Source: Kiritimatiellia bacterium
Lineage (GTDB): Bacteria > Verrucomicrobiota > Kiritimatiellia > RFP12 > UBA1067
Reading direction: 5' to 3'
Assembly (NCBI GenBank): GCA_045595285.1
Contig: JAZOAC010000071.1
Span: forward strand, 12,285 to 76,284
DNA: 64,000 nt
A program made the translations under genes and the position numbers. The notes under the pieces are model-generated. The model was not told the origin of the DNA. It worked only from the letters and a program-made list of their open reading frames with translations, and made no database searches. Shown here in pieces: positions 11,620 through 21,147 of this stretch (the stretch's first letter is position 1; every line of letters begins with the position of its first letter).

Positions 11620-12018
11620 ATGAATGCATTAGGCAGATTGGCGTCGGCTGTCGGCTATCCGCAGACTGTTCCTGCGGATGCGCTTGAGTTTACATTCAAG
11701 GTGGATGACGGAGAGGTGCGCGCCATTGACCTTGAAAAGCGTCTTGTGCTGACGCGCGAAATCTCCCGCGACGAGGATGATCTTCCGAGGCTGGCTTCAT
11801 ATTCCGCAGGGCGAATGCTCCGTGAGGCCGCTACTCTCTACTGGGATGAACGCATAGGCGCGGCGATCCTTGCGCAGGAGATTCCGGCATCGGCGACCGC
11901 CCATGAGCTGAAAGTCTTTTTCGAGACGTTTGCCGACTCTTGCGACTGGTGGTTGGCGCGTACGGCGGCGGAACCGGTAGAGTCTTCATCGTTTCCGGAG
12001 ATGGTAATCCGTCCCTGA
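11620..12018 (+). CDS. T3SS class I (CesT/SycE-fold) chaperone, in the YscB position upstream of the secretin
   Basis: 132 aa and acidic. EFTFKVDDGEVRAIDLEKRLVL ... FFETFADSCDWW matches the CesT-family layout. Sits immediately upstream of sctC, as yscB does in Yersinia. Confidence 0.55.
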   Translation: MNALGRLASAVGYPQTVPADALEFTFKVDDGEVRAIDLEKRLVLTREISRDEDDLPRLASYSAGRMLREAATLYWDERIGAAILAQEIPASATAHELKVFFETFADSCDWWLARTAAEPVESSSFPEMVIRP

Positions 12019-12036
12019 CTATTGCGAAAGGAAGAG

Positions 12037-13923
12037 ATGACTATCCTACCGACAATCAAACGGACTTTCACGCTGGCTGCAATTCTGCTGATTTTCGCGT
12101 CGTCTGCATCTGCGGCGGACAAATCCGCCGTGAAGAGGCTCCCCTGGAAGAGTCCGGAGTACACTCTCATCGCAAGGCAGATGCCGATCCGCTCGGCGTT
12201 GGAGAGTTTCAGCGTCGCGCAGGGAATCCCGATCCTGCTTTCCGATCGCGTGACGGGCGTTCTGTCGGGGGACTTCAAGGGTGTCAGGCCGGATGATTTC
12301 CTCGATCGCATTTCGGCCGTGCACAATCTCACATGGTACTACGACGGCACGGCGCTCTACATCTACACAGTCGGCGAGATGGGGTCCACACTCATAGACC
12401 TCCGCTACATGAAGGCAAGCGAAGTCCTGGCGATGATGGTGGAGTTGGGCGTCGAGGATTCGCGCTTCCCGCTCAAGACCGCGTCAAACGGCGAACTCAT
12501 CATGGTGTCGGGTCCGCCGCGGTACGTGATGCTCGTGTCGGAAATGATCGCCCGTGCGGACAAGCTGCGCGAGCAGCGTACGTTCACTTCGGTCGAGACG
12601 CGCATATTCCCTCTAAAGCATACCTGGGCGGACAATGTGAGTTTCAGCGTGACGAGCCCGGAGTCCACGGTAACGATCCGCGGCATCGCCCAGCTGCTGG
12701 AGGAGATCATGAACGCAGGGGCCGGTGCGGCGCCCGTGCGCGAAGGCGCCGTCACGAACGAGACGGACCGTCTCAGCGCCAACACGGATTCCGCATTCCG
12801 TCCCGTGATCCGCCCTGAGAACCGTCTCAACGCCGTCGTCGTCCGCGACACTGTCACGCGCTTCCCGATGTACGAGAATCTTATAGAGCAGCTCGACAGG
12901 CCGCAGAAGCTTGTGGAGATCGGCGTCACGGTTCTGGAGCTGTCGCAGGAGGATGCGCTTGACTGGCAGATGTCGCTCAAGGTGTCCGGCGCCAAGGACG
13001 ATGTCGAGGGCGCGGCGGGGCAGAACGCCGCCAATCTCTTCAATTCCGCTTCGCTCGGCGGCAAGGGGCTTGCCGGCGCCCTCACGTATCTTGGCGACGA
13101 CGTGTCGGTGTCGGCGTCGCTTACGGCGCTGAGGGAGAAGGGCAAGGCCCGTTCGATATCGCGCACTTCGATTCTCACGCTCAACAACATGTCTGCCGAG
13201 ATGACCGATACGCAGAGCTACCATGCGCGAGTCGTCGGCACCGAGGTCGCTTCGCTGGAGGAGGTGTCCGCCGGGACGAAGCTTCAGGTGAAGCCGCGCA
13301 TAGTTCCGTCCGCCTCGACGAACTCGCCCGACCGCGTGTGGCTTTCGATGGAGCTTCAGGACGGCGGATTCGAGTCGATATCCGTCGACGCCATGCCGAT
13401 GACGCGCACATCGTCGCTTGAGACGCAGGCCGCCGTGCTCGAGGGCCATTCCATCATGCTCGCCGGCTATCTCAGGGACATCAAGGAGTCCGGCGGATGG
13501 GGCATTCCGTATCTGCGCGACATCCCTTGGATCGGATGGCTGTTCGGAGGTTCAAGCGTCCGCAATGAGACCGTTCAGCGCATGTTCATCCTTACGCCGT
13601 ATGTCATCGACGTGACGACGAACGATGTCGTGGCGGTGCAGGCTGACCGCCACCGTGACATTGAGCGCGAGGAGGTCCTTGACGAGGCGTTCGACAAGGA
13701 CGGAATCGAGCGCAGGGAGCGTGAGGCGCAGATGGACTTCCGACGCGAGATGCGCCAGGAACGGGCGGAGGAACGCCACGACAGGAATGAGGCGATGCGC
13801 GGTCTCGAACGCGAAAAGCGTCGTGGCGAAATGGAGAGAGACCGCAGGGACTGGGAGAAGTGGTTCGACGAAGAGAAGCGTCGCCACGAGAATGTGAGGG
13901 ACAAAGAGGACGATGCCGACTGA
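12037..13923 (+). CDS. sctC: type III secretion outer-membrane secretin SctC (YscC/InvG family) with an unusual charged C-terminal tail
   Basis: AAAGGAAGAG lies upstream of ATG 12037. Signal peptide LAAILLIFASSASA. YTLIARQMPIRSALESFSVAQGIPILLSDRVTGVLSGDFKGVRPDDFLDRISAVHNLTWYYDGTALYIY and VSGPPRYVMLVSEMI align closely with the remembered YscC N-terminus. The secretin core includes GWGIPYLRDIPWIGWLFG. Confidence 0.9.
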   Translation: MTILPTIKRTFTLAAILLIFASSASAADKSAVKRLPWKSPEYTLIARQMPIRSALESFSVAQGIPILLSDRVTGVLSGDFKGVRPDDFLDRISAVHNLTWYYDGTALYIYTVGEMGSTLIDLRYMKASEVLAMMVELGVEDSRFPLKTASNGELIMVSGPPRYVMLVSEMIARADKLREQRTFTSVETRIFPLKHTWADNVSFSVTSPESTVTIRGIAQLLEEIMNAGAGAAPVREGAVTNETDRLSANTDSAFRPVIRPENRLNAVVVRDTVTRFPMYENLIEQLDRPQKLVEIGVTVLELSQEDALDWQMSLKVSGAKDDVEGAAGQNAANLFNSASLGGKGLAGALTYLGDDVSVSASLTALREKGKARSISRTSILTLNNMSAEMTDTQSYHARVVGTEVASLEEVSAGTKLQVKPRIVPSASTNSPDRVWLSMELQDGGFESISVDAMPMTRTSSLETQAAVLEGHSIMLAGYLRDIKESGGWGIPYLRDIPWIGWLFGGSSVRNETVQRMFILTPYVIDVTTNDVVAVQADRHRDIEREEVLDEAFDKDGIERREREAQMDFRREMRQERAEERHDRNEAMRGLEREKRRGEMERDRRDWEKWFDEEKRRHENVRDKEDDAD

Positions 13924-20096: not shown

Positions 20097-20402
20097 ATGG
20101 CGCTACCAGTATTCACAAATCCTGTAGATGAGATCCAGGCGGCTGGATTCCGCAATTGGGGCGAGAAGGATGCCAATATCCATACCGACCGCGTGTACAA
20201 TGCCCTTATCAACGCGGCAAAGGTCATGGAGGAGCGTTTGGCGACTTCCCTGAAGAACTATGAAGAGCACCCTGACGTGCAGGCGAATCTGCAGCAGCTG
20301 CAGTACGACCTTCAGAGCTGGAATCTCGCGCTTACGACGATGACGAACATCCAGAAGAACATGGCGGACGCGCTCAAGTCCATCGCGTCCAACTTCCGCT
20401 GA
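20097..20402 (+). CDS. sctF: T3SS needle filament protein SctF (PrgI/MxiH/YscF family)
   Basis: AAGGAGA lies upstream. 101 aa. The C-terminal half PDVQANLQQLQYDLQSWNLALTTMTNIQKNMADALKSIASNFR matches the needle family, compared with MxiH/PrgI ...NPQLLAEYQSKLSEYTLYRNAQSNTVKVIKDVDAAIIQNFR. Confidence 0.8.
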   Translation: MALPVFTNPVDEIQAAGFRNWGEKDANIHTDRVYNALINAAKVMEERLATSLKNYEEHPDVQANLQQLQYDLQSWNLALTTMTNIQKNMADALKSIASNFR

Positions 20403-20770
20403 TGTTTGACATTGCGCCTGAAGAGGCCCGGCTTCTGCTGAACGTCGCAATGATGGCGACGGGCGGCAACCGCTTCGTCTCCGCCGCGAAGATACTTGTG
20501 GCGCTGGGGCGTTTCCGCCCGGGGGATCCGTCCCTTGCGGCGGCGAACGCCATGCTGTTCATAAGCATGGGCGATTTTCAGGGCGCGGTCGACTATATCG
20601 ACCGTGAGGCCTTGCCGCAGAGCCCCGATGCGGCCATGCTCAAGGCGTTCAAGGGGATGGCCCTTCTCAGGATGGGGCGCGTAGAGGAGGCCCGCGCTCC
20701 GCTGGAGGAGGCCGCAGGACAGTCCGCCGATCCGTCGGCGGCGAAAATGGCAAAGGATTTGCTCATATGA
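20402..20770 (+). CDS. sctG: SctG-like TPR needle co-chaperone (YscG/PscG family)
   Basis: The start overlaps the sctF stop (TGATG). 122 aa. LLLNVAMMATGGNRFVSAAKILVAL and MLFISMGDFQGAVD parallel the remembered YscG segments [25 protein letters not shown] and LMNRGDYASALQ. Confidence 0.6.
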   Translation: MFDIAPEEARLLLNVAMMATGGNRFVSAAKILVALGRFRPGDPSLAAANAMLFISMGDFQGAVDYIDREALPQSPDAAMLKAFKGMALLRMGRVEEARAPLEEAAGQSADPSAAKMAKDLLI

Positions 20771-21147
20771 CAGACCAGATGATAGTGGAGGCCGTTCGTG
20801 CCGCGCAGGTGTCCCCGCGCATGGTCGAACCCACGGGCGCGGTCGCGCCTGTCGCCGATCCCGGCACCGTTGCCCGGTTCGCGCAGGCGATGGCGCCGGA
20901 GCAGGTCGAGGCGGTCCCGTTCGCGGACAAGGTCTCGGCGTCGTGGCATTCCGCGATGGACAACCATCAGGGCATGGTGCATCGCATAAAGGCGCTCACG
21001 GAGCTGAGCGGACGCCACACTCTGAGCGCGGCGGAGCTCGCCGAGCTTCAATATGAGGTGCACAATCTGGCGTTCCAGCAGGAGGTCGTCGCAAAGGTCG
21101 CCGACAAGTCCTCTACCGCGATCCAGACGCTCATAAAGAACCAGTAG
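20767..21147 (+). CDS. sctI: T3SS inner rod protein SctI (YscI/PrgJ family)
   Basis: The start overlaps the upstream stop (ATGA). 126 aa. VARFAQAMAPE and ELAELQYEVHNLAFQQEVVAKVADKSSTAIQTLIKNQ parallel the remembered YscI segments MRFDAAMSE and LMLMQWSLIRITIQEELIAKTAGRMSQNVETLSK. Confidence 0.6.
   Translation: MTDQMIVEAVRAAQVSPRMVEPTGAVAPVADPGTVARFAQAMAPEQVEAVPFADKVSASWHSAMDNHQGMVHRIKALTELSGRHTLSAAELAELQYEVHNLAFQQEVVAKVADKSSTAIQTLIKNQ

Follow-up and report, generated by a model that had tools for sequence, protein, structure and literature searches.

What does a bacterium keep half an injectisome operon for? Injectisomes are non-flagellar type III secretion systems (NF-T3SS; T3SS for short), and their genes are almost always kept in one locus. 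A stretch of 64,000 nucleotides from a Kiritimatiellia bacterium (NCBI GenBank assembly GCA_045595285.1, contig JAZOAC010000071.1, positions 12,285 to 76,284 of the forward strand; the whole stretch is called the window here) carries a block of twelve such genes on the + strand, at 11620-21147, which stops at sctI. The reading that is favoured here, and that we hold to be probable, is that the block is one transcription unit of a split Ysc-like injectisome, the rest of the machine being encoded elsewhere. Gene order and DNA similarity show that the block was once part of a longer operon in the ancestor, which broke after sctI; that the missing genes lie elsewhere under promoters of their own, as in two sister lineages (B and C below), is what we infer by analogy. 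The features of the block are listed with their evidence; gene identities come from Pfam and NCBIfam profile searches, with scores compared with the cut-offs of the models.

11600..11609, + strand: extended -10 promoter TTGGTATAAT of the 12-gene operon (motif enrichment and position in relatives)
11620..12018, + strand: 132-residue CesT-like class I chaperone (orf132) in the YscB position (orthologue matches)
12037..13923, + strand: SctC secretin, outer-membrane ring (TIGR02516)
13913..14497, + strand: conserved 194-residue protein (orf194; orthologues in the same position)
14487..15662, + strand: SctW gatekeeper, a fusion of YopN-like and TyeA-like parts (HrpJ, TyeA, TIGR02568)
15659..16051, + strand: SycN-like chaperone (PF21665)
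16048..16428, + strand: SctX (YscX)-like protein (PF09474 and TIGR02502, both just below cut-off)
16445..18535, + strand: SctV export gate (TIGR01399, PDB match)
18532..19821, + strand: SctD inner-membrane ring with FHA-like cytoplasmic domain (PF16697)
19834..20052, + strand: 72-residue helical hairpin (orf72), probable SctE, a YscE/PscE-like needle co-chaperone (position, fold model)
20097..20402, + strand: SctF needle subunit (PF09392 below gathering score, position)
20402..20770, + strand: 122-residue TPR protein in the SctG (YscG) position (HrpB1_HrpK and TPR families)
20767..21147, + strand: SctI inner rod, last gene of the block (PF17001, equal to cut-off)
21148..21192, + strand: breakpoint after sctI, with the aconitase promoter TTGATACAAT at 21173-21182 (end of homology, motif)
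21193-23157, + strand: aconitase (adjoins sctI, own promoter)

Gene order in relatives and the break after sctI

The twelve genes have orthologues in intact single-operon loci of Kiritimatiellae and Lentisphaeria, found partly through a contig scan with an SctV+SctN concatenate whose matches were dominated by the universal FlhA/SctV motif DAMPGKQM. In L001-L003, L005 and L096, and in the species representatives L007 and L008 (Kiritimatiellae) and L006 (Lentisphaeria), the order is chaperone, sctC, orf194, sctW, sycN, sctX, sctV, sctD, orf72, sctF, TPR, sctI, as in the window, with the promoter at the same position. Whereas the block in the window ends at sctI, these loci run on with sctJ, a TPR gene of 114 residues, sctK, L, N, O, P, Q, R, S, T and U. 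SctV of L001-L003 is 84% identical to that of the window, and the figures for L005 (partial) and L096 are 91% and 92%; in L096 sctU is followed by a gene for a sigma factor and by a translocator operon that includes an SseC-like gene. The 114-residue TPR gene follows sctJ in the Kiritimatiellae relatives. L006 has a TPR gene between sctX and sctV, and in Yersinia yscY lies between yscX and yscV. Because the order is common to the Kiritimatiellae/Lentisphaeria clade, the position of the N-to-V group between sctC and sctD is ancestral, and on these comparisons the order C-x-W-SycN-X-V-D-E-F-G-I is an old feature of the branch, not of this genome. An earlier reading of the window, made from its letters and open reading frames (ORFs) and called the sequence-only reading here, had taken the locus for two blocks spliced and rearranged into one; what it saw is the norm of the clade.

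DNA similarity between the window and the intact relatives stops at the stop codon of sctI (21145-21147). Public assemblies contain this exact SctI protein in 114 indexed blocks, and the strain comparison comprises the window and ten of the indexed places (11 strains), chosen by identical SctI. The ten conspecific assemblies are 99.0-99.4% identical to the window and all end at sctI, and sctJ follows sctI in none of the strains of the species compared. Aconitase, an 80-residue ORF, OTCase (ornithine transcarbamylase), RNase HII and ychF come after sctI in eight of the ten, as in the window; in the two others (L087, L094) similarity to the window is lost immediately behind the stop codon of sctI, where a GFO_IDH/GH109-type gene and genes for glycosyltransferases follow. 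Upstream, one of the ten (L086) carries an ABC transporter gene, its similarity to the window beginning at 11571.

The source is a metagenome-assembled genome (MAG), and close relatives carry sctJ where aconitase sits here, both of which would suit a chimeric contig in which assembly or binning joined half a T3SS to an unrelated aconitase region. However, the sctI-aconitase junction recurs at 99% identity in at least eight contigs of up to 167 kb, from different samples, assemblers and studies, and the 114 blocks with the exact SctI speak against the same suspicion. Because ten independent, 99% identical assemblies end at sctI, chimeric assembly can be taken as excluded, and an artefact of this kind is scarcely conceivable. 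The break after sctI is a real feature, peculiar to this species.

On both sides the neighbours of the block differ from strain to strain within the one species, with breakpoints at its edges, and its G+C content exceeds that of the remaining window by about 5%. Such flanks would be explained if the block were a cassette, mobile or horizontally acquired, that moves as a unit. Beside the block in the window, however, there are no flanking repeats and no integrase, transposase, recombinase or tRNA genes; a G+C excess of 3-5% over the flanks marks the T3SS genes of every relative as well as those of the window, intact loci included; and the relationships of SctV follow the host groups sampled in the neighbour-joining (NJ) tree described below. 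We regard a cassette as quite improbable.

All 12 ORFs are intact in 11 of 11 strains. With each variant counted once, the block holds 152 synonymous and 68 nonsynonymous changes (per-site ratio 0.15), and eight flanking housekeeping genes hold 71 and 17 (0.07); the pairwise per-site ratios are 0.13 for the block and 0.05 for the housekeeping flanks. As the break is common to all the strains, the genes have been under this constraint ever since it arose. The block is not decaying and is kept under purifying selection in a widespread species.

Identity of the genes, their promoter and the placement of SctV

The twelve + strand genes overlap or nearly abut one another (overlaps at 13913/13923, 14487/14497, 15659-15662, 16048-16051, 18532-18535, 20402 and 20767-20770), and this ORF layout agrees with the tight packing and the junctions of the sequence-only reading. 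Its gene calls also stand, most of the proteins being identified directly by profile scores. SctC, which starts at the ATG at 12037 and has 628 residues in conspecific contigs, reaches 344 bits on TIGR02516 (cut-off 238) with the domains Secretin, Secretin_N and T3S_SPI-1_N0; it stays far under the cut-offs of the GspD and PilQ models and is therefore a secretin of the T3SS type. SctW is a single ORF of 391 residues, with HrpJ at residues 65-228 and TyeA at 303-382, and scores 101 bits on TIGR02568 (cut-off 89.5). The SycN-like chaperone reaches 33 bits on PF21665 (cut-off 27) and 48.8 bits, under the cut-off, on TIGR02503. The SctX-like protein lies just under the cut-offs of both its models (22.8 bits on PF09474, cut-off 25; 28 bits on TIGR02502), and its orthologues in L001-L003 match PF09474 without the mark of a weak hit. 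SctV, of 696 residues from the ATG at 16445, scores 900 bits on TIGR01399 (cut-off 692), and SctD 36.3 bits on PF16697 (cut-off 33) and 60 bits, under the cut-off, on TIGR02500.

The proteins in the needle and rod positions have lower scores. SctF has 25.6 bits (E 1.4e-5) on PF09392, under the gathering score of 29.4, in a position that is kept in the relatives. The 122-residue TPR protein reaches 31.4 bits on HrpB1_HrpK (cut-off 29.3) besides hits to TPR families, with no match to the Type_III_YscG model, and SctI has 32.4 bits on PF17001, equal to the cut-off, and 22.9 bits on HrpB2. The window copies of orf132, orf72 and orf194 have no direct profile match, and their profiles gave nothing significant against PDB sequences. 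The orf132 gene lies upstream of sctC in all relatives, and four of its six orthologues match Pfam CesT (best E 8e-6), the window copy alone being not significant; hhalign of the family against SycN gave nothing. For orf72, directly before sctF, the AlphaFold2 (AF2) model is a two-helix hairpin (pLDDT 77), whose PDB fold search places PscE (2uwj_E, 28% identity, TM 0.62) and EscE at ranks 2-4, with E near 0.7; one of seven orthologues weakly matches T3SS_needle_E. The names SctG and YscB-like, and SctE as a probable name, derive from position and weak similarity. orf194 has orthologues in the same position in L001, L004 and L096 (49-75% identity) and, within the species, 14 synonymous versus 3 nonsynonymous variants; Pfam, PDB and structural comparison give it no assignment, and its single-sequence AF2 model has a pLDDT of only 31.

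Across all large ORFs of the 64-kb window, Pfam scans gave no match to sctJ, K, L, N, O, P, Q, R, S, T or U, nor to translocators, so the abrupt end at sctI with aconitase directly after it, as first read from the letters, is borne out. Just two members of the core set (sctC, J, N, Q, R, S, T, U, V), namely sctC and sctV, are present at the locus, accompanied by D, F, I and W. The same scans show the other sizeable ORFs to be housekeeping genes and a partial Tad-like trio, and no flagellar genes; a YscY-like gene is likewise absent from the window, and positions 10-24 kb gave no Rfam match.

The promoter-like element proposed at 11601-11609 proves to be real, its motif being enriched in the window and found upstream of genes. 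TTGNTAYAAT occurs three times in the window (0.19 expected), each time just upstream of a gene, and the extended -10 box TGnTAnAAT (TGNTANAAT) 14 times (2.3 expected), 13 of them on the + strand. The boxes that were checked closely precede gene starts, those of the block, aconitase, OTCase, ychF, cinA and an LRR gene among others (for example at 11601, 21174, 23596, 25857, 34297, 44520 and 54747). The stretch from 11610 to 21173 is free of such boxes, in agreement with a common transcript of the twelve genes and with the single operon that had been proposed. The same motif stands in the same place in L001, L004, L007, L008 and L086, and the intact relatives have one box before the first gene and none inside. 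A scan with the -35/-10 consensus missed the block promoter, where no -35 consensus is apparent, and the + strand carries no terminator-like site between sctI and aconitase. By its distribution, TGnTAnAAT looks like the general or main promoter type of the organism and not a signal specific to the T3SS.

The closest full-length SctV proteins belong to Kiritimatiellae MAGs (80-86% identity), followed by Victivallales (70%) and Verrucomicrobia (about 58%), in keeping with the organism of the PVC (Planctomycetes-Verrucomicrobia-Chlamydiae) type that had been suggested. Exact look-ups of the SctW and aconitase of the window gave no record; of ten other window proteins tested, eight are present in public collections, several of them identical in a conspecific NCBI MAG labelled Lentisphaerae bacterium (locus tags E7046_). 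On the FlhA model TIGR01398 SctV scores 644 bits, under the cut-off of 772, and the best PDB match is YscV (7alw, 802 bits), with SsaV at 462 and FlhA at no more than 397. SctV is non-flagellar, which supports the split, non-flagellar system that the sequence-only reading had in mind. Against C-terminal domains it scores 389 bits for YscV and 279 for CdsV, and among the matches listed its identity is 47-49% to Chlamydiae loci and 52-55% to Ysc-like proteobacteria. A rough NJ tree of this one protein (bootstrap only for the Kiritimatiellae+Lentisphaeria node, 50/50) joins Kiritimatiellae, Lentisphaeria and Verrucomicrobia with the systems of Achromobacter, Belnapia and Desulfovibrionaceae, leaving Chlamydiae, Hrp-like systems and Myxococcota outside the group of PVC and Ysc-like proteins. 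Judged by these sequence comparisons, the block belongs to a Ysc-like non-flagellar injectisome, with an SctV closer to YscV than to CdsV; of the earlier label 'Ysc/chlamydia-type' the first half is kept, and the second is given up.

Sister lineages and the missing half

A single large cluster gathers SctN proteins that share about 92% identity with the SctN of the intact relatives; two of its members were traced, to lineages B and C. In lineage B (L108-L117), sctN, O, P, Q, R, S, T and U come directly after cinA, with no sctJ, K or L upstream. Lineage C has, after cinA, a promoter and the first sctN codons fused to an ORF of 44 residues (L121 7672-7847), then sctO-U. A mini-block with its own TTTGATATAAT promoter (L121 17001-18372) lies 3.4 kb downstream of sctU, beyond thiamine genes on the other strand, and consists of a 114-residue YscY-like TPR gene, sctK and sctL, again without sctJ. 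A complete lone sctN (L102 9960-11332) sits between HAD hydrolase and Na/H exchanger genes, and occurs in the same three samples as the sctO-U block (ERZ27297789, SRR12711153, ERZ28633419). Each of these pieces has its own TGnTAnAAT box. Because the stub and the lone gene share the promoter-plus-start sequence GGGATTTGCTATAATTGC...ATGTC, they point to a duplication of sctN together with its promoter; the sequences suggest that the original was then deleted. A reading of the 44-residue ORF as the 3' end of sctN was rejected, the stub being promoter plus first codons.

The cinA of lineage B is 88% identical in DNA to that of the window, and that of lineage C 67%. That lineage B is the same species with a paralogous cinA was considered and rejected: identity is no higher than 83-88% for its cinA, rubrerythrin and LRR genes, the gene downstream of the LRR gene is still the same one, and the samples do not overlap (10 versus 10 places). 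In the window, a 257-residue LRR_8 protein (54764-55537) has its orthologue (83.5% DNA identity) 3 kb downstream of sctU in lineage B (L109 11820-12593), and in lineage C the lone sctN has an LRR_5 protein in its vicinity (L102 20108-21304); both are possible T3SS effectors. The gene in the SctP position, for the needle-length ruler, ranges from about 136 to 771 residues across L001-L003, L096, L099 and L108-L131, and varies within a single lineage (374, 417 and 565 residues). Farther away, a Puniceicoccales (Verrucomicrobia) MAG (L009 9573-13183) has SctV with only a TPR gene and a 372-residue gene of no assigned function, between genes for cysteinyl-tRNA synthetase, phosphoribosyl pyrophosphate synthetase and fatty-acid metabolism; because of this locus, the scattering of T3SS genes may be wider in PVC bacteria.

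If the machine is split, the block would supply the SctC secretin, the SctD ring, SctV with SctX, SctW and two chaperones, together with a needle and rod module of the SctE-like protein, SctF, the TPR co-chaperone and SctI, all twelve genes being driven by one extended -10 promoter of the housekeeping type. Ancestrally, and in the intact relatives to this day, they make up the first half of one operon with no fewer than 22 genes, running on through sctJ-TPR-K-L-N-O-P-Q-R-S-T-U, which in this lineage was cut exactly after sctI. To go by the two sister lineages, the partners SctJ, the sorting platform, the ATPase, the ruler and the SctRSTU export core would be encoded elsewhere under their own promoters, so that the products of several loci would have to come together in the machine, as they do in Chlamydia.

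Several points weigh against a split machine. Protein look-ups, cluster listings and contig scans yielded no missing sct gene for this species among the matches listed; a metagenome contig scan for which SctO+P+Q of lineage B served as query gave no more than three contigs, none longer than 2.5 kb, and the SctQ clusters held no member with the locus tag E7046_ among the matches listed. The cinA-adjacent site that the sisters use is without sct genes here because RcpC/CpaB, an FHA-fused CpaF-type ATPase and one TadB/C-like gene (45166-48461) occupy it; no secretin, pilin or prepilin peptidase gene lies near this Tad-like set. Purifying selection means that the genes are functional, and the function need not be secretion. 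The count of zero nonsynonymous changes in sctI arises by construction, the strains having been picked by identical SctI.

A remnant would account for the lack of a second half, for the other genes at the cinA-adjacent site and for the 64 kb devoid of further sct genes: sctJ-U would have been deleted, the twelve genes persisting because the loss is recent or because some, such as the secretin or SctV, were co-opted. Partial NF-T3SS loci such as ETT2 do exist (Abby and Rocha 2012, PMC3459982). Yet the 12 ORFs are intact in 11 strains, a ratio of about 0.14 has been held since a break that predates the divergence of the strains, and the sister lineages keep their dispersed pieces. The constraint also covers needle, rod and chaperone genes, for which we know of no role outside a complete injectisome. 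Non-functional NF-T3SS, moreover, are reported to be quickly deleted (PMC3459982). A remnant is thus considered unlikely, and a split injectisome remains the favoured reading.

For the wider group, the states can be arranged as stages of scattering: one operon of at least 22 genes in the relatives, two or more pieces both in this species and in lineage B, and four or more in lineage C. We lean slightly towards the view that a genus-level group of gut and rumen Kiritimatiellae has been caught in the act of scattering its injectisome genes, each piece with a promoter of the housekeeping type. New with respect to the sequence-only reading are the sctJ-sctU genes that the relatives carry directly after sctI, the break common to all sampled strains and the different fragmentation of the sisters.

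Known systems, genomic surroundings and what the scattering may mean

In Yersinia, yopN-tyeA-sycN-yscX-Y-V, yscN-U and yscA-M are separate operons, whereas here the N-to-V group stands between sctC and sctD, SctW is a single fused protein and the locus is cut after sctI; the YscY-like TPR gene, moreover, is not beside sctX and in the relatives follows sctJ. The likeness to the Ysc/Psc systems of Yersinia and P. aeruginosa lies in the gatekeeper with SycN, a second CesT-like chaperone and the FHA-like SctD, with a putative YscX-like protein and a putative E-F-G trio, besides an SctV that among solved structures is most like YscV and in the NJ tree groups with Ysc-like proteobacterial systems. 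With the chlamydial T3SS (cds) the block shares the PVC superphylum, a fused gatekeeper and contiguous D-E-F-G genes, the latter already remarked in the sequence-only reading, as well as genes spread over several loci (PMC3459982), although SctV is less like CdsV in the C-terminal comparison and Chlamydiae fall outside in the tree. The chlamydial scattering is old and fixed, whereas here it would be recent, differing between sisters while relatives with 92% identical SctV keep one operon. An incomplete core gene set at one locus is also found in E. coli ETT2 and in the short loci of Myxococcales; unlike these, the block has no pseudogenes and is under purifying selection, and, in contrast to the short systems of Myxococcales (PMC3459982), it includes secretin and needle genes.

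Upstream of the block, a 2787-residue ORF (1867-10230) with a signal-like N-terminus has no Pfam match, and a TSP3-repeat protein and a 141-residue ORF fill the space that follows (10230-11518). Of the TSP3 and SHD1 content read earlier, the TSP3 repeat is present (10230-11093), and SHD1 is absent from the Pfam hits of the scanned ORFs. L001-L003 likewise have a giant ORF ahead of the T3SS; it was considered as a homologue of the one in the window and rejected, as the two are not homologous. Two RsmE-like RNA methyltransferase paralogues (PF04452; 50976-51764 and 61886-62617) lie 10 kb apart. Nearly all genes of the window are on the + strand, and because the cumulative GC skew climbs from 1 kb onward, interrupted just by a small dip at 6-8 kb, the window is probably part of a single replichore arm, on the leading strand.

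The system itself is of a known type; what is new is the recent, lineage-variable scattering of its organization. In their 2012 survey, Abby and Rocha (PMC3459982) list no scattered NF-T3SS beyond those of Chlamydiales, Hamiltonella defensa and one Yersinia plasmid, and proposed that loss of specific regulation relaxes selection for clustering. A full-text literature search found no paper describing T3SS organization in Kiritimatiellae. Since close relatives here show both the intact and the fragmented state, with promoters that can be read, the proposal of Abby and Rocha can be tested with existing rumen and gut metatranscriptomes. If the genes are indeed being scattered, this would be the first non-chlamydial case in the PVC bacteria and a natural time series for the origin of a dispersed T3SS like that of Chlamydia, and expression would be constitutive rather than co-regulated. 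T3SS callers based on clustering would score such genomes 'incomplete'.

In conclusion, a species of gut and rumen Kiritimatiellae has a single-promoter, 12-gene operon of a Ysc-like injectisome that is conserved under selection. That these abundant, uncultured gut bacteria keep a selected Ysc-like injectisome points to an unrecognized interaction with eukaryotic cells, be they those of the host, of protozoa or of fungi.

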